Shown: positions 5,338 through 41,198 of the stretch, in pieces
How the letters are laid out: the number at the start of each line of letters is the position of its first letter
Position numbering within the stretch: position 1 is the stretch's first letter
From: an uncultured candidate division Zixibacteria bacterium
Lineage (GTDB): Bacteria > Zixibacteria > MSB-5A5 > UBA10806
Assembly (NCBI GenBank): GCA_963801605.1
Contig: CAWDFP010000006.1
Location: forward strand, 96,001 to 160,000
Reading direction: 5' to 3'
Length of the DNA stretch: 64,000 nt
Notes under the pieces: generated by a model
Seen by the model: only the letters and a program-made list of their open reading frames with translations
Told to the model about the DNA's origin: nothing
Databases searched by the model: none
Position numbers and translations under genes: made by a program

Positions 5338-5535
5338 AGTCCCTCCTTGTTGGCTAAGAATAGGTCAAATGCCATGCCACGAGATGCATATAGTTGGGAC
5401 TGACGATGCCTACATAACTTATTCAATATTAATATGTTAAGGCGCGGTTTCAGGCTTTATCAAAAACAACCAGATACCATATTAAGCGTTATGTGCAGGA
5501 TAATGCAGATATACTGTAAATGAGGGGCTTGAATT

Positions 5536-21407: not shown

Positions 21408-21764
21408 ATGCCCGCAAAGAAAAAGGTCGCTAAAAAGAAAACCGCAAAGAAAGTAGTAAAGAAAGCAGCCAAGAAACCAGCTAAGAAAAAAGCAGCCAAG
21501 GGCGGCGGCAGAGGCAAATCGAATCCAGCTTTCATGAAACCGATGCAGCCGGATGCAGCGTTAGCAGCCGTAGTTGGCGATAAGCCGCAACCTCGTACCC
21601 AGATCACCAAGAAGGTATGGGATTATATCAAGGCCAGAGGCCTTCAAGATAAGGTCAACAGGCGAAACATCAATGCCGATGAGAATCTGCTCAAGGTTTT
21701 CGGCGGCAAGAAGCAAGTCAGCATGTTCGAAATGACCAAGCTGGTCAACAAGCACCTGCTCTAA
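21408..21764 (+). CDS. SWIB/MDM2 domain protein with histone H1-like Lys/Ala N-terminal tail
   Basis: AGGAGG RBS; MPAKKKVAKKK tail; FMKPMQP...LAAVVG...PRTQITKKVWDYIK...VSMFEMTKLVNKHL. Confidence 0.93.
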   Translation: MPAKKKVAKKKTAKKVVKKAAKKPAKKKAAKGGGRGKSNPAFMKPMQPDAALAAVVGDKPQPRTQITKKVWDYIKARGLQDKVNRRNINADENLLKVFGGKKQVSMFEMTKLVNKHLL

Positions 21765-29952: not shown

Positions 29953-29992
29953 AAGGTCAACTACTATAATAAAATAAGGTTGAAATACCAAT

Positions 29993-30020
29993 AAAAAAAG
30001 TCCGCCTGAGGGCGGACCTT
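29993..30020 (-). terminator. Rho-independent terminator after the microprotein gene
   Basis: Minus strand reads GTCCGCC-CTCA-GGCGGAC followed by T7. Confidence 0.85.
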
Positions 30021-30040
30021 ATAACAATATCGGAAGACTC

Positions 30041-30109
30041 TTACTTTTTGCCCTTCTTGGCGGCCTTCTTCGCGGGTTTCTTCTTAGCTGCTTTCTTTTT
30101 GGCTGGCAT
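30041..30109 (-). CDS. 22-aa Lys/Ala-rich histone H1-like microprotein (MPAKKKAAKKKPAKKAAKKGKK)
   Basis: AGGAGGTG RBS 5 nt before ATG, TAA stop, terminator just downstream; same N-terminus as the SWIB tail; too short for the ORF track. Confidence 0.8.
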   Translation of the reverse strand: MPAKKKAAKKKPAKKAAKKGKK

Positions 30110-30130
30110 AAATTCACCTCCTCTCGCGTC

Positions 30131-30526
30131 TCAACGTTCGACGGTTCTAATCTCCAAGATGTCCTTGGAAAAGTTGATTATAAGCCCCAATTTCATTCGA
30201 TTAGCTTTGAGAATGCTCTTTAGTTTGGATTCATCCATATCAGTAAGATGGTCACCGGTTTGAACCGCAACCACCAAGGCGCCCTCGACTACAAAATCAA
30301 GCCGGTATTCGCCAGCGACCGAACCCTTGTAAGCAAGCTGGATAATCTTATCTCTTTCGAATTCGATATTTTCCAATCCGAATTCGTAGGCTAAGGCATG
30401 GCAATATTCCTCACGACCGAACCCCAGGCCCATATTTTTATGGACTTCGAGTGCAACGTCCATAACGCGGGCTTGAACTTCTCGTTCAACTTGGTTGGGT
30501 TTTGTCGCTAACTTCTGATCTCTCAT
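30131..30526 (-). CDS. GxxExxY family PD-(D/E)XK-fold protein with degenerate catalytic motif
   Basis: ALEVHKNMGLG, YKG...YRLDFVVE and KLGLIINF hallmarks; signature reads GFGREEY and VAVQT instead of GxxExxY and ExK. Confidence 0.82.
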   Translation of the reverse strand: MRDQKLATKPNQVEREVQARVMDVALEVHKNMGLGFGREEYCHALAYEFGLENIEFERDKIIQLAYKGSVAGEYRLDFVVEGALVVAVQTGDHLTDMDESKLKSILKANRMKLGLIINFSKDILEIRTVER

Positions 30527-30549
30527 ACAATTTACCGTAAGTTATTTAG

Positions 30550-30565
30550 CGCAAAATCCGTGCCA
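30550..30565 (-). promoter_or_regulatory. Sigma-54 (-24/-12) promoter
   Basis: Minus strand TGGCAC-GGATT-TTGCG matches TGGCAC-N5-TTGC, 23 nt upstream of the GxxExxY ATG. Confidence 0.8.
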
Positions 30566-30661
30566 ATAATTCAATAATTTTGAAATATCTTATAACTGAG
30601 TGTATTATATGAGGTTATCTATAAGAGTCGAAATCCTGTTATGTTTCAATAAGATATGGTT

Positions 30662-30749
30662 TCGAGACAATGCTGTCGCAATTTTTATATAATAGTTAGC
30701 TAATTTGACCCTCTTCCCTATGAAAACTGCTGCGACCGAAGTGTCTCGA
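30662..30749. promoter_or_regulatory. Pair of putative enhancer (UAS) sites for the adjacent sigma-54 activator
   Basis: TCGAGACAATGCTGTCGCA (30662-30680) and the reverse complement of 30731-30749 (TCGAGACACTTCGGTCGCA) match at 16 of 19 nt; each is semi-palindromic. Confidence 0.6.
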
Positions 30750-30777
30750 TTTTGAGGAAAAAAATTATAAAATTTGA

Positions 30778-32553
30778 TTATTTTTCTTTGTCAGGCTTAA
30801 TTTCGGCACTCAAATTGTTTCGCTTCAAAATCCGCTGAAGCTGCTTGCGATGCAGGCCTCCCAAACGGGCAGCCTCGGAGATATTGTGGTCACTCCTGTC
30901 CAGTAGATTTCTGGCAAATTCGGTTTCCAGGGGCGATATGACCTCGCGCCAGAGCCGTCGTTTGAGTTCCTCGAGCTCCTTGCCGTTGGCGGGAAGTTCA
31001 GTTTTATCGGAGCCACCGCGACGCTTGATCGAATCAGAAAGTTCATTGGCCGTGAGGGTATCCCCTTTGCAGAGAACCACAGCGCGTTCGATTACATTTT
31101 CAAGTTCGCGTACATTCCCGGGGAACGTATATCCTTTTAGATAGGACATCGCCAGAGCATCGATTCCGATAATATTTTTGCTATTCTTAAGCGAATATTT
31201 TTTTATGAAATGAGATACCAGAAGCTCGATTTCGCCGGTGCGCTCCATCAGCGGCGGAAGCTTGATCGCAATAACATTGATGCGATAGAAAAGATCATCG
31301 CGGAATTCTTCGGTTTCAACCATTTTGGCGAGATCTTTTTTAGTGGCGGAGATAATCCGCACGTCAGCCATCTTCACACCGGTTGATCCCAGCGGTTCAA
31401 ATTCGTGGGACTGTAAAAATCTTAGCAGCTTAACCTGCAATAGCGGCGGGAGTTCGCCGATCTCATCCAAAAAAATCGTGCCGCCGTTGGCTTGTTCAAC
31501 CCGTCCGGGTTTTCGTCCCACGGCGCCGGTGAAAGCGCCTTTTTCGTAACCGAAAAGCTCCGACTCCAACAGCGTTTCCGGGATGGCGGCGCAGTTGATC
31601 GTAACGAAAGGGCTGTCTTTGCGTTTGGAATTAAAATGCAGGGCGCGCGCCAGCAGCTCTTTGCCCGTACCGGATTCACCCTCGATAAGAACCGCGCTAT
31701 CGGATTCGGCAACGTCAGCGACGACCGAGAGGACTCTGGCCATCTCAGGAGAGTTGCCGATGATCTCGTCAAACTTGCATTTGCCGCGCAAATCAACCAT
31801 GAGGCTTTCGCCTTCGGAAATAAGATTCGATGAGTTGAGCGCCGGTTTGAGAGTCTGCCAGATTTGTTCGGATAAAATTTTGAGAAGTTCCATATCGGCT
31901 TTGGTGAAAGCGCTTTTGATTCGGACGGCGTGCAAAAGCCCGGTGACTTCATCTCCCGATTTCAACGGCACGCAAACGGTGCATCCCATCTCGGAGTCGT
32001 TGGCAGAATCGATCATGACAGGATCGCCGGTGGAAAGAACCGCCGCGCAAATCTGTTTCGATGGTGTATATTTGCCGTTTCGCGAGGCCGATGCATACTG
32101 AGTTTGAATTTTACCATTATCATCGACCAATTGTAGGACAGCATGGTCGCAGGCAAGTATATCGGATACCGCTAACGCGATTTCCGGAAGAATGCCTTTG
32201 ACATCTTTTTCGGTTGAAATGAGGTTGGAAAGCTCGTAGAGAGTTTTATAAAGCTTCTTTTCTTTGGTTACGCCATCGATTTCGGTTTTAAGTTTTTCGT
32301 ATTCCCGAATCAGACGCGCCACACGATCGTTGAGCGAATCCTCGAAACGCGAAAGTTTCTTTTCCATCAGATCGAGTTTGGAAAGAAGCTTGGCGTAACG
32401 ATCCGAGCTGGAGATCTCGGTGGCCTCGGAGAGAAAATCTTTAAGCGTTACGATGGAGTCGAACGACCGTCTGATTTGATCGGTTGACTCCTTGCGCAAC
32501 TGTTCGAGGTCGGCTGCGAATCGTTCTGATGCTCTGCTTACGGTGACTTTCAT
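30778..32553 (-). CDS. Sigma-54-dependent enhancer-binding protein (coiled coil, GAF, AAA+, HTH)
   Basis: GESGTGKE, ESELFGYEKGAFTGA, FLDEIGE, FRDDLFYRIN, FPGNVRELEN, NISEAAR HTH. Confidence 0.95.
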   Translation of the reverse strand: MKVTVSRASERFAADLEQLRKESTDQIRRSFDSIVTLKDFLSEATEISSSDRYAKLLSKLDLMEKKLSRFEDSLNDRVARLIREYEKLKTEIDGVTKEKKLYKTLYELSNLISTEKDVKGILPEIALAVSDILACDHAVLQLVDDNGKIQTQYASASRNGKYTPSKQICAAVLSTGDPVMIDSANDSEMGCTVCVPLKSGDEVTGLLHAVRIKSAFTKADMELLKILSEQIWQTLKPALNSSNLISEGESLMVDLRGKCKFDEIIGNSPEMARVLSVVADVAESDSAVLIEGESGTGKELLARALHFNSKRKDSPFVTINCAAIPETLLESELFGYEKGAFTGAVGRKPGRVEQANGGTIFLDEIGELPPLLQVKLLRFLQSHEFEPLGSTGVKMADVRIISATKKDLAKMVETEEFRDDLFYRINVIAIKLPPLMERTGEIELLVSHFIKKYSLKNSKNIIGIDALAMSYLKGYTFPGNVRELENVIERAVVLCKGDTLTANELSDSIKRRGGSDKTELPANGKELEELKRRLWREVISPLETEFARNLLDRSDHNISEAARLGGLHRKQLQRILKRNNLSAEIKPDKEK

Positions 32554-32844
32554 AACTTGATGTTGATTTTAAGATGATTGTTCTGTGTTGTCAAACAAAT
32601 AATAAAAATTTGAACGATGTTTGAAAAATAATTCTTTGATTTTCCTGTCATACCAAAACTAAAAACACAAATTGAAGATGAAAAGTTTTGGTTTGGATGA
32701 CGAAATTAAATAAATTTTGAATCTGCGTGGAGCATTTTTTTATATGAACGTATTGGAATTCTCACTCGTCCCGATAAAAAACATCATGACTCGTTTAGAA
32801 CCCGATCTATCATACCGTTAATATTAAAACCAGGTTTCGGAAAC

Positions 32845-34383
32845 CTACGACCAGTCGGAAACCCGTTTTTTTACCCACACTTTCCCTTTTCGCTCAGCCA
32901 CACCATCGGCATGTTGAAGGTAAATCGCAAAAAGTCTATCGCGCAAATCGCTGGGGATGGCATTAACAGGCGATTTATCATTATCAATCATCAGTTTCAT
33001 AACCTGGGGATGTGGCTTAATTTTCGAATTATCAACCGGCGGAAGCAATCTTTTCTGCGAAAGCATAGAGAGCATCTGGCCGGCAGTAGCGGCATCCTGA
33101 CGGAGCGTAGTATCAGCGAGGTCCCTGAGAACATTTTTAATTTGCGCACGCTTGTAGCCACAGCGCGAGGGATCAGCTTCCAGAGCCAGAAGCATCCCAA
33201 CTATGCGGCGGCATTTCTCGCAAGCGCCGCAGGGGTAAATCCGACCATGCTCGATATGAGTGGCGTGACATGAAACCTGCTGACGCTGTAGATCGGGGTA
33301 ACGTTCGACAAGTAGCTTTTCTATCATAAGCTCCGAGAGCTGCCTGATAAGTGAAAACTGCAGAATTCCCCAATCTTTGCGCTTATAGTAGGCCGACATC
33401 GCCTGGTCAAAATAGCGGCTTTGATCGTAAAGGCCGTCATAATGCAGGATTCCCTTGTGATACATCTTGCGGGTGGTGTCGTATTCATCGCCGATGATTA
33501 GCCGGCCCAAGCCCCGTTTGCGCAAAAGAGGTAAGGCGCCAAAAATGAAGACTGCCACAGTCCAGAGTCTAATGGGGTACTCGTCGGCCCGAAAATTGGC
33601 GAAATCCTGTCGAACGAACGGCAGATGGCGCAGCATCCAGTTGAACAGACGGTCGGCGTTGGTCCAGACACGCGCTGTGCGGGGAATATGACGCTCGAAG
33701 TATCGATAGGCATTCAGGGCGGTGTACCAATGCCGTCCAGACTCGTTGACGTAGATAGCGTCGGTGTAATATTTCAATTCATTCAAGAGACCAAAGCTGA
33801 GCAGGCTGTCTTTCCCTCCGCTTGAAAGAACCGCATAGCGAGATTGATCCGAATTCCATTTATAATCGGTTAAACCGCTTTGGGACGATAACCTGTCATC
33901 GATAAATATTAATTTGGCCCTGAGATATGAATTTCGCTTTATAGCCGTAAGATGGGCGGCAGCACCGAGCAAGAACGGGTTAGGCTCCAGAAATTTTTTG
34001 ACATAAATCTCCCGGGCTGTGTTTTCAGCCATATTTTCGATAAAGATGCGATCCTGTTTATCGTAAGGGCCGTGGAATACAATCTTTTTACAGAACAGGC
34101 CATAGTTCAGCGCCACCTGTGCGGCAATCATCGAACCCAGATTTTGGGATTCTATACTGGTCGGCTCAAAAACGTCCTCATTATAACGGTAAATAAGCTC
34201 GGTGGAATCTCGCCGCGATCCCCGGACAACTGAATAAGGGGCGATGAGTCGGTTTCGTTCCAGGCGTATGGGACCGATATCGAGTTGGTCTATAACCTCG
34301 AGAATTTTGAGGGGGTCTTTAGATCGAATTGACATCGATGTATTCTTTGAAGCCTTCTTTTGCGCTTGAATTCGGATCGCCAC
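32845..34383 (-). CDS. PP-loop (N-type ATP pyrophosphatase) protein, QueC/MurL-like
   Basis: VLSSGGKDS PP-loop; QVSCH...PCGACEKC metal-binding motif; the start may instead be ATG at 34335. Confidence 0.7.
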   Translation of the reverse strand: MAIRIQAQKKASKNTSMSIRSKDPLKILEVIDQLDIGPIRLERNRLIAPYSVVRGSRRDSTELIYRYNEDVFEPTSIESQNLGSMIAAQVALNYGLFCKKIVFHGPYDKQDRIFIENMAENTAREIYVKKFLEPNPFLLGAAAHLTAIKRNSYLRAKLIFIDDRLSSQSGLTDYKWNSDQSRYAVLSSGGKDSLLSFGLLNELKYYTDAIYVNESGRHWYTALNAYRYFERHIPRTARVWTNADRLFNWMLRHLPFVRQDFANFRADEYPIRLWTVAVFIFGALPLLRKRGLGRLIIGDEYDTTRKMYHKGILHYDGLYDQSRYFDQAMSAYYKRKDWGILQFSLIRQLSELMIEKLLVERYPDLQRQQVSCHATHIEHGRIYPCGACEKCRRIVGMLLALEADPSRCGYKRAQIKNVLRDLADTTLRQDAATAGQMLSMLSQKRLLPPVDNSKIKPHPQVMKLMIDNDKSPVNAIPSDLRDRLFAIYLQHADGVAERKGKVWVKKRVSDWS

Positions 34384-34529
34384 GGTCGAAACGACTTCGC
34401 GATGACAAGGCTCCTCTAATTAGTGGCATCTGATGTAATTGCGGAACCTGGAGGTCCCGCCTATTAAGAAAAAGACGTCAGGTTTGGGGAGTATAAAAAG
34501 CTCGACCAGGCCTGACGCCACATTTGAAA

Positions 34530-35627
34530 TCAAACGAAGCTGGTTTCGTGGCGGCTTTTAATCAATGGCGCTAAAGCATCCACCAACTTGTCGGCACCTT
34601 CGATAAGCACGTCAATTGCAGGACGGCCGGTGCTTTCGGCAATGTTGGCGCAAACAGCCTTAATTTGCGAGCGCGGTATGTTTTCATGATTTATCGTAAT
34701 CGCAACCACCGGTTTCGATGAAACAACCTCGATTGCTTGTATCTGATGCGACAGGGGATGAATCTTGTAATTGGGGAAGCCGTCGTAATGAGTTCTGGTA
34801 GGAGCGTGTTGAAGAATGACAGCGTCAGGACGAGAAGCCGCCAGAAGCTCATAGCCTCCCGGATAGGCGGGATTCAATAAACTCCCCTGGCCCTCGATGA
34901 CGATAACCTCCGGATGAAACTTATCCCAGGCCGACCAAATAACATGTTCGATCTCACCTGTCAGGAAATCGTTTACAATCGTATCGAGCATGATTCCAAA
35001 ACAAACACCCTGCATCCAGGCGGTCTGGCCGGTGCCGATCATCTCGGCCGAGATACCGGCTTTGTTCAGGGCCTCCACCAAAAGCCAGGCGGTGGTGCGT
35101 TTGCCAACCGCCGAATCGGTGCCCAATACAACAACTTTAATAGCTTTGACATCATCAATCTTGCAACTGAAAAAATGCTGTTCCGACATCGGGGGCGGTT
35201 TTCTGATATCGCGAATTGCGACGTTATGTGCCAGGGCCAGCGGAGCCAGGATGGGATCTTCGGAAATAAAATCGTGCAAACCACAATCGATATTCATGCC
35301 AAGTTCGATGGCGCGCTTGATGTCATCTCTGGCCTGCTGATTAAGTCTGCCTCCATCAGGCGCCAAGCCGATTACGAAATGCGTAGCTCGTTTGCCAGAC
35401 GCTCCTGCTGACTGGTAAGCTTCACCGATGGAACTAAAAATCGGGATTCCCTTGGTTTTGCCATCAAGCATTCGGCCGGCATCTTTGCCGGCGTGACAGG
35501 AATCGATTACCGATAGGACGTTATATCGTTTAGTAAAGCGCACCAGTCCATGCGCGGTCTTGCCGTTGGGGGTGCCAAAGGCTCCCTCGCAATAGACAAT
35601 AGCGTTACCCTCGGGAAACCGGCTCAT
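34530..35627 (-). CDS. DUF1611 family protein (DgcN-like)
   Basis: GKTAHGLVR, GLHDF, GTDSAVGKRTT, GTGQT, IEGQGSL motifs. Confidence 0.88.
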   Translation of the reverse strand: MSRFPEGNAIVYCEGAFGTPNGKTAHGLVRFTKRYNVLSVIDSCHAGKDAGRMLDGKTKGIPIFSSIGEAYQSAGASGKRATHFVIGLAPDGGRLNQQARDDIKRAIELGMNIDCGLHDFISEDPILAPLALAHNVAIRDIRKPPPMSEQHFFSCKIDDVKAIKVVVLGTDSAVGKRTTAWLLVEALNKAGISAEMIGTGQTAWMQGVCFGIMLDTIVNDFLTGEIEHVIWSAWDKFHPEVIVIEGQGSLLNPAYPGGYELLAASRPDAVILQHAPTRTHYDGFPNYKIHPLSHQIQAIEVVSSKPVVAITINHENIPRSQIKAVCANIAESTGRPAIDVLIEGADKLVDALAPLIKSRHETSFV

Positions 35628-36769
35628 GCTTTCCTACCTGTTAAAACTATTACATAACGATCGCTGGGAAGAGGCTCGACGCGATGCCGTTCTACGAAGG
35701 CTACCAATCCGGCCGAGGAAGCCGGAAGGATGCTCAAACCTTCGCGCTCCAGAATCATACGTGAGTATGACAGCATGCTTTTATCACTAACATCGTCAGC
35801 CCATCCATTGGTTTGACGAATAGCCTCAAGTGCGAGATTGCCGTCAATGGAATGCCAGTTGATAAGAGGCTCGTTGATCGGAGTTTCATGAATCAAGTCC
35901 GGGCTTAAATCCTCACAAAATGGCGAGCCCTTGAGATAAGCTTGAATAATCGGATTTTTACCGAAGGACGACCCCGCGATCATGCGCGGGATTCGAGAAG
36001 TTTTGCCTCGACGATAGAGACTGACGAACCCTTTATAGATGCCTGCCAGAGTGCTGCCATTGGATACGGGCACAGCCACAGCCGCGGGAGCGTCGCGAAG
36101 CTCATCATATATCTCATAAGCAATCTCGCCATAAGCTCGGAGTTGAAGCGCGGTATTGGCGCCACCGGGATTGGCGTCATAAATCTCATCATTTTCGGCT
36201 CGTTCGCGGGAAACCAAAATGGCATGTTCGTAATCGCCGGGCACCATGACGATTTCGCTGCCGTAATTTATGATTTCCTGTATCCGCTTGGTGCGGTAAG
36301 TTTCGGGGATATAGATGATACAGCGTAAACCGGCCAGCGAGGCGGCCAGGGCAACTGCCACACCGTAGTTGCCGCAGGTGGCAGTGGTTATGGAATCGAA
36401 TCGACGGCGCATGGCATCCATAGCCTGGGCAAAGGCGACACGATCTTTTTGGGTACCGGTCGGATTACCACCGTCGAATTTAAGGAAAATCTGGCGCAAT
36501 CCCACCTCGCGTTCGATATTTCTGGCGCGGGATAGAGTGGTATCGCCAATTTCGGAATCAATGATATCCTCGAAAGCTTCCAGACGCTCGTCAAGCAGGC
36601 GATTTTTATCGGCGGCTACAATCTTTTGAGTTTCAAGCTCGGGCGCAATAGTCGGGGCCGCCGAACTGGCTCCATCAAGCAGCGACAGCGATTGGCCATT
36701 GCCGTTGCCGTTGCTCCCGTTTAGCGGGATGGTGGCTTGATCATCTTTTTGTAATTTGAAATTGTTCAC
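35624..36769 (-). CDS. PLP-dependent fold-type II enzyme (threonine synthase/cysteate synthase-like)
   Basis: NPTGTQKDR PLP lysine, ATCGNYG, VPVSNGSTLAG; start uncertain (GTG 36769 or TTG 36805). Confidence 0.85.
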   Translation of the reverse strand: MNNFKLQKDDQATIPLNGSNGNGNGQSLSLLDGASSAAPTIAPELETQKIVAADKNRLLDERLEAFEDIIDSEIGDTTLSRARNIEREVGLRQIFLKFDGGNPTGTQKDRVAFAQAMDAMRRRFDSITTATCGNYGVAVALAASLAGLRCIIYIPETYRTKRIQEIINYGSEIVMVPGDYEHAILVSRERAENDEIYDANPGGANTALQLRAYGEIAYEIYDELRDAPAAVAVPVSNGSTLAGIYKGFVSLYRRGKTSRIPRMIAGSSFGKNPIIQAYLKGSPFCEDLSPDLIHETPINEPLINWHSIDGNLALEAIRQTNGWADDVSDKSMLSYSRMILEREGLSILPASSAGLVAFVERHRVEPLPSDRYVIVLTGRKA

Positions 36770-36877
36770 TTTTCTTTTCCATTTATTAATTAAATAACCA
36801 AACAATTAGAATCATTCCATAAACCTATGGCGATTTATAGTTGAGACTACGGCGGTGTTAATTGAATAAATGTCGAG

Positions 36878-38123: not shown

Positions 38124-41100
38124 TTAATTGGCACTCGAGTTGGTTTCGCTTGATGGCTTTACCATAGGAATATACTTATCATCGACCTTTAAGGTTCCGA
38201 CCGGTGCGCAATCAGGACATGGATGAGCGGCAGGGCCACCCTTGAAATAGGAAACCATGTAGGTAACATCGAGACCGTTGAAACTGCAGCTGGCGTTAAC
38301 ATCACCTGCTACATACCAGATATGCCCCGGAGTGCATTCGCAGGAGTAAGGAGGAAGTGCGCCGCCTTTGAAGTAACCGACACTATAGGTCACATCCAAT
38401 CCGTTGAAGACGCCGCTTCCGTTAGCGTCGCCAACAGCATACTGGCAATTGGGACCGCCACTTGTTACAGTCAAAATCACGGGAACATCGACGCGAGAGT
38501 TAATCGCCGCATTAGAGAATACAGTGATATTGCCGTTGTAGGTCCCTGCCGTAAGCCGGGAAGCGTCCAGAGTAACGTTGATAACCTGCGGCGCGCCATA
38601 GACTGGTATCGAGCCGAAATTCGAATCGACCAAAAGCCAGGCGGGCTCGGTATGCAGGGTAATCAGGTAATCGTTGGTATAATCACCTGAACCATCGCAG
38701 GGGACGTTCGGGAAGGCCGGATAGCCATAAGGAGCAACGAAAATCCAATAGTCACCTGTCGGCAAGGTCATACCGGCGGTTGCAACCGTACACGGCGGAG
38801 CAATGGCGCCCCAGAGCAGCTGCTCGGCAGGTATCGAGCCGGACGGGCATCCCATGGAAGCATCGAGCACCATGATAAGCATCGGGAATTCGGCTACGCC
38901 TGTCAGAGTCAGGTACTTGGGTTCGGTTATATTGAGAAGGTACCAATCGGTATCGCGAAGGTTGGGATCGGACCAGCCGGTACCGCAAACTGAACCGTCA
39001 GCAAGAATCGGCTCAAAGGCGTTAGGGGTCGCATTGCAGCCGCCATTGACGTCCTCACCGCAAACCTCAGCCTCGGCAATTGAACCCTCGGGGCATTCCA
39101 CAACGCAGGGGACGTTTTCGAATACATTGATAACGTAATCGCCGCTTCTGCCGGATGCGTAACCGTCAACTACGATATAATAAATATTCCCGGATGTTAC
39201 ATGTATCCGGTCAAGCTGCGAAGCCGTACCGCAGTAATCGTCATTGCAGGCGATTGTATTTTCAGCGGTATTTTCCATGATATAGAGTTTGCTGTCGAAA
39301 CTGGTACCGCAGAGACTGACAGTAATATCCATATCAAACGCCGGCGAGAACGAATAGACCACATCCGGTCCGCCGACATCACCGCAAGTCCCGGTATAAT
39401 CATCAGCGGCGCCATCAGTATTGCCGTTATCGGTAAATGGCAGGACATCGATCGGATAGGCTGTATTGATATCCTCGCCGCCCTGCAGGATGCGATTATA
39501 GACAATTCCGTTATTCCGGCCGTTATTCAACAGGCTGGGATCCTTGGCAGTCTCCGCTGACGGGACAGCGCCGGTATAGAACTGCGAATTGTTGTAAGCA
39601 ATCGGCCTGTGTGAGAGAATCCTGTCAGATGTTTGGGACGTTACAATGTTGTAATTTAGCTGATCGGAGCCGATATTTTCAATCGCCAAAGGCGCGGTAG
39701 TTGAATTGCCGGCAACTAAATCGCCGGTGATCTGCTCGGGCATGACGCTCATTTCGGGTGTGCCTTCGGCTTTGATATTTATCGTATATGGACCGGAGGC
39801 AATTCCCCACTTGGACATGATCGGGTAATAATAGGTACCCGGAGCAAGGCTATCCCAGCGAAGCGTGAAGTTGTGATCCTCGCAAATATACTGCGTGTAC
39901 ATGTTGCAGCCGATGTACTGGCCGCAAGGGCACTGGTCTTCCAGCACGATAAAGCAGGTGCCGAAAGCCGGAGTTGTGCCGCAATAATCGAGCGTCACAT
40001 TGGCTGTAAAGTCAAGTGTGAAGGCCGCCCAGGATTCTGGCATCCCAAGATTGACACAGTCCATCGTCGCGCCGGTGTTATCGCCTGTTAAGGTAATCGG
40101 CGTGCCGGGAATCAAGGCAAGGGGAGTGACATCCGCGCAGTTATCGTTCGGGGGCGGAGCCGGTGATGGGCTGGAGTTCAGCCAGGCCAGGTACTGCATC
40201 GGGCACTGATAGATTGGATCGAAATTCTGGGGGGAAACATAGAAATAATAAGTGCCGGGAACGCAGTTGGCGGATATATCGATAGTCTCGCCGGCATTGG
40301 CGAACTTTACATTGAGATCAGTTAGGTTCGCGCAATCGGCCGCGTAGAACATAAAAATCTGGATGGGGCACTCGGCCACCGCGCTCCAGGTGAGGACCTG
40401 GGTTTCAGTGATCGTGGTGCTGAACCAATCTGTATCGCGGAATCGTCCGCCTTCACCGGCGAATGTTCCGGTTTCACCGCAAATGGTATCGCCAATCGAA
40501 ATCGGTATGAAGGCCTCAAGCGTAGGATCGTTGCAACCGCTGTTGTAGGTATCGACATAGCCGTCACCGCAAGATGGTTCGCCTTCAGGAATGGCGGTCG
40601 GGGGACAGTCGACATGCGGCGGTTCAAGAACCTGGATGGAGTAAGCGCCCTGCGAGGAGTAGTAACCGTCAACAACGATATAATAGGTATTGCCGGCATA
40701 AACGGGCAGCAGGTCTAATGAACCGGATGGCGGACCGGGGCAGACAGTTGAAAAGGAACTGCAGCCCACAAGATTATTTTCATCGTTTTGAAATACATAC
40801 AGGATGGCATAAAAGGATGTGCCGCAGAGATGGATATTGAGCACTTGATCGACCGGCGGTGTGTACGAATAAAAAACGTCAGGGCCGCCGACAGTGCTGC
40901 CGCAGGGGGCTTCATAGTCGTTGTTGTAACCGGTAGTAGTGCCATCATCATTAAAAGGAAGAGAAGGTATCTGGAAGGCGTCACCGAAATTGTCGCCTCC
41001 CTGGAGTATCGTCCGAGGAGTCTGGGCCGGCTCGGACGGAAGCGGATAATCGATTGCGGGAGTCGGAATGGCTTTGGCTCCCCAGTAGGGTTCCACGCCT

Positions 41101-41198
41101 GATGGCGCGGTCCTGGCGATTACATTGCTGTTGCCGGCCAGGGCCTGCGCCAGGCAGATCAGAATAAGTGGCAGCGACAACAGTAAAGCTTTCTTCAT
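38124..41198 (-). CDS. Secreted Cys-rich repeat protein with C-terminal dockerin-like domain
   Basis: Signal peptide; duplicated ILQGG...LPFxDxG...GGPDVxY...YYIVVDGY module; twin GD(A/V)N...NGLDVTY Ca-binding repeats at the C-terminus. Confidence 0.85.
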   Translation of the reverse strand: MKKALLLSLPLILICLAQALAGNSNVIARTAPSGVEPYWGAKAIPTPAIDYPLPSEPAQTPRTILQGGDNFGDAFQIPSLPFNDDGTTTGYNNDYEAPCGSTVGGPDVFYSYTPPVDQVLNIHLCGTSFYAILYVFQNDENNLVGCSSFSTVCPGPPSGSLDLLPVYAGNTYYIVVDGYYSSQGAYSIQVLEPPHVDCPPTAIPEGEPSCGDGYVDTYNSGCNDPTLEAFIPISIGDTICGETGTFAGEGGRFRDTDWFSTTITETQVLTWSAVAECPIQIFMFYAADCANLTDLNVKFANAGETIDISANCVPGTYYFYVSPQNFDPIYQCPMQYLAWLNSSPSPAPPPNDNCADVTPLALIPGTPITLTGDNTGATMDCVNLGMPESWAAFTLDFTANVTLDYCGTTPAFGTCFIVLEDQCPCGQYIGCNMYTQYICEDHNFTLRWDSLAPGTYYYPIMSKWGIASGPYTINIKAEGTPEMSVMPEQITGDLVAGNSTTAPLAIENIGSDQLNYNIVTSQTSDRILSHRPIAYNNSQFYTGAVPSAETAKDPSLLNNGRNNGIVYNRILQGGEDINTAYPIDVLPFTDNGNTDGAADDYTGTCGDVGGPDVVYSFSPAFDMDITVSLCGTSFDSKLYIMENTAENTIACNDDYCGTASQLDRIHVTSGNIYYIVVDGYASGRSGDYVINVFENVPCVVECPEGSIAEAEVCGEDVNGGCNATPNAFEPILADGSVCGTGWSDPNLRDTDWYLLNITEPKYLTLTGVAEFPMLIMVLDASMGCPSGSIPAEQLLWGAIAPPCTVATAGMTLPTGDYWIFVAPYGYPAFPNVPCDGSGDYTNDYLITLHTEPAWLLVDSNFGSIPVYGAPQVINVTLDASRLTAGTYNGNITVFSNAAINSRVDVPVILTVTSGGPNCQYAVGDANGSGVFNGLDVTYSVGYFKGGALPPYSCECTPGHIWYVAGDVNASCSFNGLDVTYMVSYFKGGPAAHPCPDCAPVGTLKVDDKYIPMVKPSSETNSSAN

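Follow-up and report, generated by a model that had tools for sequence, protein, structure and literature searches.

PspF lacks an N-terminal sensor and is bound by PspA at its AAA+ domain. In the phage shock response of E. coli, PspA acts as a negative regulator of this sigma-54 activator and is released by stress (parts of PMC3068692). In the RtcR/RtcAB system, the activator RtcR is contacted at its N-terminal regulatory domain, a CARF domain, by the products of its operon, RtcA and RtcB; catalysis is not needed for this binding, and both products are active enzymes that are needed for activation (parts of PMC9650030). Here, we describe a comparable unit in a 64-kb stretch of a Zixibacteria genome (G000:C6:96001-160000, hereafter the window, whose own numbering is used throughout; G000 is the genome that the window comes from). 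The unit lies on the minus strand and consists of a sigma-54 activator with a GAF domain, followed by genes for a GxxExxY protein that has lost its catalytic residues (the pseudo-nuclease) and for a short Lys-rich peptide. Modelling predicts that the pseudo-nuclease docks on the activator's GAF domain. By analogy, this module would work like PspF/PspA or RtcR/RtcAB while belonging to neither. As with PspF, a product of the operon would bind and control its own sigma-54 activator, but the predicted site is the GAF domain, the partner has a nuclease fold without a PspA family match, and the output is an H1-like peptide. As with RtcR, the binding would involve the N-terminal regulatory domain, but this is GAF rather than CARF, and the partner lacks catalytic residues and is dispensable in one lineage.

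AlgP of Pseudomonas aeruginosa is a large protein with a folded N-terminal part. It resembles the peptide in its H1-tail-like K/P/A repeats, which bind polyanions (parts of PMC9239181); AlgP is tied to polyphosphate, whereas ppk1 was mostly not found in module-bearing genomes. Chlamydial Hc2 (HctB, PF07382) and, with it, Hc1 are further close counterparts. Hc2 shares with the peptide Lys-rich pentamer repeats of variable number (parts of PMC2848022) and the use of an alternative sigma factor. Hc2 is 165-237 amino acids (aa) long and transcribed by sigma-28, and the relevant parts of PMC7482065 and PMC12282069 give hctB no sigma-54 promoter; the peptides described here have 13-146 aa, fall below the Pfam cut-off and come with a dedicated activator. 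The pseudo-nuclease shares sequence family and fold with the GxxExxY proteins (TIGR04256 / PF13366 PDDEXK_3), tandem members of which also contain degenerate domains, but it belongs to a stand-alone clade without ExK and QxxxY, in a fixed operon and with predicted binding to an activator. A literature search of partial coverage returned no description of this module, nor of any GxxExxY protein that binds an activator. The module is apparently undescribed, and its new element would be a pseudo-nuclease predicted to dock on a GAF domain. If true, this would add a new class of input to sigma-54 activators, provide one member of GxxExxY, a large and uncharacterised family, with a first role, and place a stand-alone H1-tail-like peptide of only 13-22 residues, of a kind that gene callers easily miss, under dedicated feedback in a phylum without cultured members. 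Because the unit of ~2.6 kb can be rebuilt in E. coli, both GxxExxY function and the minimal length of a DNA-compacting peptide would be directly testable.

We compared the locus with 49 GTDB orthologs, obtained from a scan of 185,579 species genomes, and with a metagenome set of 104 confirmed loci, 80 of which were retained; the metagenome counts are limited to loci with enough flank. The phylum was surveyed for orthologs of the pseudo-nuclease and the activator in 151 genomes, with families coded f1, f2, f8, f12, f18 and so on. The pseudo-nuclease of the window matches PF13366, its sole Pfam match, with 82 bits (cut-off 22) and TIGR04256 with 90 bits (cut-off 35). Three canonical copies from relatives carry E38, D77, E87, K89, H98, Q101 and Y105; at the matching positions the window protein has R38, D77, A87 (in A87-V-Q89), Q89, D98, K101 and I105. 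The initial annotation, made before any comparison, had noted that the signature Glu is Arg. This is true of the window, where the signature reads GFGREEY and departs from GxxExxY, but it is a lineage-specific change, since 30/49 orthologs keep Glu 38. The common lesions are the loss of the motif-III Glu (48/49) and the replacement of Gln101 by Lys or Arg (49/49); Y105 is kept in 1 ortholog. The single ortholog with E87 lacks K89, and none of the 49 loci and none of 120 homologs has ExK. The 45 pairs with unsaturated dS have a median ratio of nonsynonymous to synonymous substitution rates (dN/dS) of 0.035; in the window's family it is 0.052 (8 pairs), with the window's own gene in none of the unsaturated pairs. 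Because ExK is absent throughout and dN/dS is at this level, the protein has lost its catalytic residues and yet appears to be kept by selection. The catalytic degeneracy proposed in the initial annotation is thereby borne out by motif counts in the 49 loci, none of which retains ExK, and in the 120 homologs.

The predicted structure (predicted local distance difference test score, pLDDT, of 88) shows a restriction-endonuclease-like fold. The nearest solved fold is Cas4 SSO0001 (4ic1; E 1.7e-4; root-mean-square deviation 3.3 over 98 residues) with a Z of 8.0, a mid-range value that supports the fold and not the function. An alignment-based sequence search of solved structures returned only ribosomal L7 (E 0.053), which we take as chance, and an Atlas search returned GxxExxY clusters only. 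The Zixibacteria pseudo-nucleases are stand-alone, single-copy proteins that form one clade (FastTree 0.97), and the one in the window is acidic (isoelectric point 5.7, net charge -3). Degeneracy of GxxExxY domains is not new by itself. Among the 150 best representatives, those longer than 230 aa contain 37 canonical and 46 degenerate domains, for the most part in active-plus-dead tandems, which suggests that the family may work as an active-plus-dead dimer. For other degenerate single-domain proteins, cluster look-ups named two outside lineages only. Tandem proteins that pair a canonical with a degenerate domain are common (P0122, P0123, P0125-P0131 and others). Within the phylum, canonical copies turned up in f12 and f18 genomes only (7/151), and those of f18 at L090-L092 are preceded by repetitive DNA that reads as NGFNG/NPLHPL repeats when translated.

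Three genomes (G014, G019 and G022) have no GxxExxY gene or remnant and keep the activator, both enhancer boxes, the promoter, a peptide of 20-21 residues, the terminator and vanZ, with a non-coding leader of 175-250 nucleotides (nt) before the peptide. The activators of these genomes and of G020 form one clade (98/95) inside family f2, and we therefore count the absence as one loss. After the loss, the AAA+ domain of the activator remained conserved (identity 80% to 75%), and the N-terminal part diverged. This divergence prompted a complex prediction with activator residues 1-262 and the pseudo-nuclease, run alongside 3 control pairs. The interaction prediction score from aligned errors (ipSAE) was 0.75 (0.72, 0.75, 0.76), with the best control at 0.00; the mark for this score is reached by 116 of 157 solved complexes and by 2 of 215 mismatched pairs. 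The runs share at least 94% of contacts, and the pLDDT of the partners is at least 84. On the activator, the predicted interface comprises GAF residues 165-186, 189, 218 and 221. On the pseudo-nuclease, it comprises helix 1 (22-34, ALEVHKN) and the strand 122-130, and L26, K30 and N31 are near-invariant there and depart from the canonical copies. The former active-site positions are not among the predicted contacts. Since there is no solved sequence relative and the fold matches are only 4-23% identical, the score is unlikely to reflect structures memorised by the predictor.

The activator sequences are consistent with this prediction. For the ten interface columns on the prediction tool's lowest-error list, identity was 95% among four relatives that retain the gene and fell to 37.5% against those that lost it, compared with 65% to 43% for the other GAF columns (column permutation, p 0.003), and the top 3 of 105 sliding windows cover the interface. 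A comparison of the N-terminal model of the activator with solved folds returned generic GAF domains. Finally, G017 encodes a 122-aa peptide in another context, behind a sigma-70-like site (L160, G017:C8:297324-300352), with no sigma-54 site and no activator ortholog detected in that genome. Ranked by persistence, the peptide comes first, the activator and promoter second and the pseudo-nuclease last.

The activator itself consists of long N-terminal helices (~1-114), a GAF domain (116-235), a Sigma54_activat domain (264-430) and HTH_8. Its GAFTGA and Walker A motifs are intact, and its Fis-type helix-turn-helix (HTH) has the recognition motif HRKQLQR. Orthologs, called with a profile of the N-terminal part at E < 1e-40, occur in 26 genomes, all of them within the 27 of 151 phylum genomes that hold the pseudo-nuclease (exception, G163); in family f18, 7/8 genomes have one, located away from the module. 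The two enhancer 19-mers are inverted, identical at 16/19 positions and centred at -107 and -175 from the -24 GG. A position-weight matrix trained on 36 ortholog boxes and run across the whole genome gave 23 matches, among which the proximal box ranks first and the distal box eighth, and the boxes of the window are the sole pair in the genome with 55-85 nt spacing. A wider regulon was rejected, as the genome scan found no second box pair and no other box match near a sigma-54 motif. Across loci, a recognition helix of the xQ type (HRKQ) pairs with a TGCGAC-N6-GTCGCA box in 38/38 cases, and one of the xE type (HRVE) with a TG(T/C)AAC-N6-GTT(A/G)CA box in 29/30, with one tie. Given the co-occurrence in 26/27 genomes, the sole box pair and an HTH that tracks the box, we regard the activator as dedicated to this operon.

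The promoter motif TGGCAC-N5-TTGC at 30565..30551 is the only exact match in the window. A sigma-54 motif lies upstream of the GxxExxY gene in 49/49 GTDB loci, at a clade-fixed distance, and in 74/76 metagenome loci; in the background it occurs in only 43 of 3219 windows of 140 nt taken from these 49 loci, true sites included. A Lys-rich open reading frame (ORF) follows the GxxExxY gene in 48/49 GTDB loci and 73/73 metagenome loci. Those in the 48 loci are in frame behind GGAGG, with one running off its contig, and the exception, L051, is frameshifted. The terminator hairpin in the window has a folding energy of -20 kcal/mol (z -3.5; equally stable shuffles, 0/200), and a perfect-stem hairpin with a T tail was seen in 34/48 loci examined. 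The activator, boxes, promoter, GxxExxY ORF, micro-ORF and terminator are all where the initial annotation placed them on the minus strand, and its sigma-54 operon with two enhancer boxes and an adjacent activator is supported by promoter conservation, the unique box pair and the HTH-box covariation. Promoter (49/49), peptide (48/49) and boxes all recur in orthologs. The description of the module as self-contained fails in 19/49 loci, where the activator is not next to it; from the proposed order activator-GxxExxY-peptide, the last two members keep their arrangement and the activator is adjacent in 30/49 only. Irregularities at L065 (activator split into two ORFs, 601-2196), L051 (peptide frameshift near 5400) and L229 (no promoter motif) may reflect decay or assembly errors.

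By label, the 49 loci comprise 27 Zixibacteria, 15 Ignavibacteria, 6 uncultured bacterium and 1 Terriglobales, and the loci labelled other than Zixibacteria nest within Zixibacteria where they are placed on the activator tree. The GxxExxY protein was matched in 22/41 relatives, and the pseudo-nuclease was not found in searched members of the large families f9, f5, f10, f13 and f16. A vanZ-like neighbour gene is present in 29/49 loci. A recent mobile insertion was rejected on the grounds of single copy number, common neighbours and pairwise distances that track those of the activator (r 0.87-0.88, 30 pairs, a correlation that shared ancestry alone yields). The module thus fits a vertically inherited Zixibacteria sigma-54 operon, within an overall explanation that we consider evenly poised between right and wrong.

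The micro-ORF was annotated with 22 codons. That length holds in the window, whereas orthologs range over 13-146 aa with a median of 29. The peptides consist of K (55%), A (17%), T (14%) and R (7%), in pentamer arrays of variable repeat (KKKTA, KKKAT, KKKVA). Over the first six codons, compared in 40 peptides, third positions are free and first and second positions nearly fixed, which is the signature of a translated gene; together with its presence in 48/49 loci, this supports a real and selected H1-like micro-ORF, as first proposed. Ribosome-binding strength in the window is -16.0 kcal/mol for the peptide and -3.1 for the GxxExxY gene, and the Shine-Dalgarno of the peptide is the stronger of the two in 49/49 loci. 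By analogy with Hc2, the peptide likely binds and compacts DNA. A role of the poly-Lys ORF as an attenuator was rejected, as the next gene has its own sigma-70-like site and varies between lineages.

Similar sequences occur elsewhere. A 118-aa SWIB-domain protein (PF02201) at 21408-21764 (+) of the window begins with 40 residues of H1-like tail nearly identical to the micro-ORF, with no sigma-54 box pair nearby. Outside the window, at G000:C6:376379 (+), lies a second stand-alone ORF, K/A/P-rich and 20 aa long, with a Shine-Dalgarno, an upstream TTGACA and a downstream hairpin. Loci L123-L126, L134, L147, L148, L151, L152 and L133 (f8, f12, f18) combine the same MPAKKK start and a strong Shine-Dalgarno with no sigma-54 sites; their products are small proteins of 34-65 aa rich in Cys (CxxC...CC) and a SWIB-like protein of 58 aa.

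We propose a circuit in which the peptide is the output and the pseudo-nuclease a feedback regulator, likely negative, of its own activator, a reading to which we give about an even chance. The peptide is assigned as the output because its Shine-Dalgarno is stronger in 49/49 loci and it persists without the nuclease gene. Binding of the activator to the two boxes, as suggested by the HTH-box covariation, would open the -24/-12 promoter, and a single mRNA of ~550 nt would serve both genes, with the peptide translated far more strongly. The weakly translated pseudo-nuclease would then dock, through helix 1 and its last strand, on GAF residues 165-186 and damp the activator. Its amount would stand in for that of the peptide, which has too few features for direct sensing. 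The peptide, by analogy, would neutralise and condense chromosomal DNA. A negative sign of the feedback is the more probable by about two to one, given that the unit persists where the pseudo-nuclease gene is lost.

Several points weigh against this circuit. The complex is a model from one job, with alignments outside the calibration of the tool. The gene loss behind the decay test is a single event, and the columns are not independent; the coiled region 60-115, which is not part of the predicted interface, decayed comparably (64% to 25%). Within other clades, the core of the interface shows no special conservation (p: f1 0.05, f18 0.52, f8/f12 0.88), and the interface columns of the pseudo-nuclease are as conserved as the rest (0.76 vs 0.76). 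The HTH-box covariation is a single phylogenetic split, not 68 events. The IHF consensus is absent from the promoter of the window at up to 1 mismatch; exact or near sites are present in some relatives, and G000 has one HU/IHF gene. The Hc2 model (PF07382) did not match peptides of 22 aa and 116 aa and gave the 146-aa one 19.3 bits against a cut-off of 40, and knockdown of a chlamydial histone did not stop nucleoid condensation (parts of PMC13317200). Finally, rpoN was not found in the G000 assembly, which is 86.9% complete. It is present in 40/40 relatives, and its absence from G000 is probably an assembly gap. G000 has at least 13 sigma-54 activator-like loci despite the missing rpoN.

The predicted complex carries no sign, and the same docking could work in the opposite direction, with the pseudo-nuclease co-activating the GAF domain in a feed-forward loop, possibly a bistable switch that would commit the cell to much peptide and a condensed state. 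RtcR offers a precedent, since RtcA and RtcB bind its regulatory domain and activation requires them (parts of PMC9650030), and the whole N-terminal region of the activator changed fast after the loss, as if becoming partner-independent. The three genomes that keep a complete activator-box-promoter-peptide unit without the gene are easier to explain for a brake, and we consider co-activation unlikely. The circuit might also stand as described with a different polyanion as the target of the peptide, either RNA or ribosomes, for storage or hibernation, or granules of polyphosphate. Nothing in the sequence of a +13 peptide selects for DNA, and the H1-like AlgP organises polyphosphate granules (parts of PMC9239181). 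Nevertheless, ppk1, the only polyphosphate kinase searched for, was found in 7/41 genomes, in 0/13 of the window's family and not in G000, which makes polyphosphate the weaker candidate, and a length free to vary over 13-146 aa suits a non-specific polymer better than a ribosomal pocket, so that this variant seems to us rather unlikely.

A tentative version of the negative circuit, which we consider unlikely, would be a bacterial chromatin homeostat in which the pseudo-nuclease, a domesticated nuclease, senses exposed nucleic acid by its former active-site face and binds the GAF domain by another. The invariant K67 and K/R101, which lie outside the predicted interface, would sit on the sensing face; uncoated or damaged DNA would pull the pseudo-nuclease off the activator, and the protamine-like peptide would be made until the DNA is recoated. 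The same residues, the PD-(D/E)xK fold and the frequency of degenerate domains as second halves of tandem GxxExxY proteins could instead speak for the proposal of the initial annotation, in which the dead nuclease is a nucleic-acid-binding effector alongside the peptide; the prediction of a GAF complex would then be wrong. We regard this as very doubtful: a complex score of 0.75 against 0.00 for the controls, the targeted decay of the GAF surface after the loss, the weak Shine-Dalgarno and the acidity of the window protein all speak against it. The evidence points to a protein partner of the GAF domain, dispensable where the remaining parts persist. It is scarcely credible that the protein has kept nuclease activity through a rewired site (E38, E77, K89, D98, K101), or serves as the partner subunit of an active GxxExxY nuclease. 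Those five residues occur jointly in 26/49 orthologs, and 7/27 pseudo-nuclease genomes have a canonical copy, but the window has R38, A87 and Q89, and the window's family varies these sites freely at a dN/dS of ~0.05. Active copies as partners were rejected for most genomes, since 20/27, G000 included, have none.

Under the preferred reading, that of a peptide output with feedback by the pseudo-nuclease, the parts of the locus are arranged as listed in Table 1.

Table 1. Features of the module and its borders in window coordinates.
Feature	Position	Strand	Basis or remark
Sigma-70-type promoter-like site of activator gene, TTGACA-17-TAAAAT	32566..32594	-	Consensus match, 11/12
Sigma-54 enhancer-binding protein, 591 aa	30778..32553	-	Domains and co-occurrence
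Activator codons 165-189, GAF helix and strand, predicted pseudo-nuclease contact	31987..32061	-	Complex prediction; decay after partner loss
Distal enhancer box, TGCGAC-N6-GTCGCA type, centre ~-175	30731..30749	.	Inverted 19-mers, matrix, covariation
Proximal enhancer box, centre ~-107	30662..30680	.	Top matrix match in genome
Sigma-54 -24/-12 promoter, TTGGCAC-N5-TTGC	30551..30566	-	Motif; transcription would start near 30539, with a 13-nt leader
Degenerate GxxExxY (PD-(D/E)xK-fold) protein, 131 aa	30131..30526	-	Predicted GAF-binding feedback regulator
Shine-Dalgarno AGGAGGTGA of peptide gene	30114..30122	-	Full complement to the genome's 16S rRNA tail
Lys/Ala-rich H1-tail-like micro-ORF MPAKKKAAKKKPAKKAAKKGKK, 22 aa	30041..30109	-	Preceded by AGGAGGTGA
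Intrinsic terminator, hairpin (30020-29997) and T run	29990..30020	-	Folding against shuffles
Sigma-70-like site serving vanZ-hisS-aspS	29991-29963	-	Follows terminator

On the far side of the activator gene, a neighbouring operon at 32845-36805 (-) encodes a 512-aa protein without a Pfam or NCBIfam match, a 365-aa protein and a 393-aa protein, which we take to be threonine-synthase-like. Further on, at 38124-41198 (+), lies the gene for a secreted-looking protein of 1024 aa with repeated Cys-rich modules and, presumably, a dockerin-like C-terminus.

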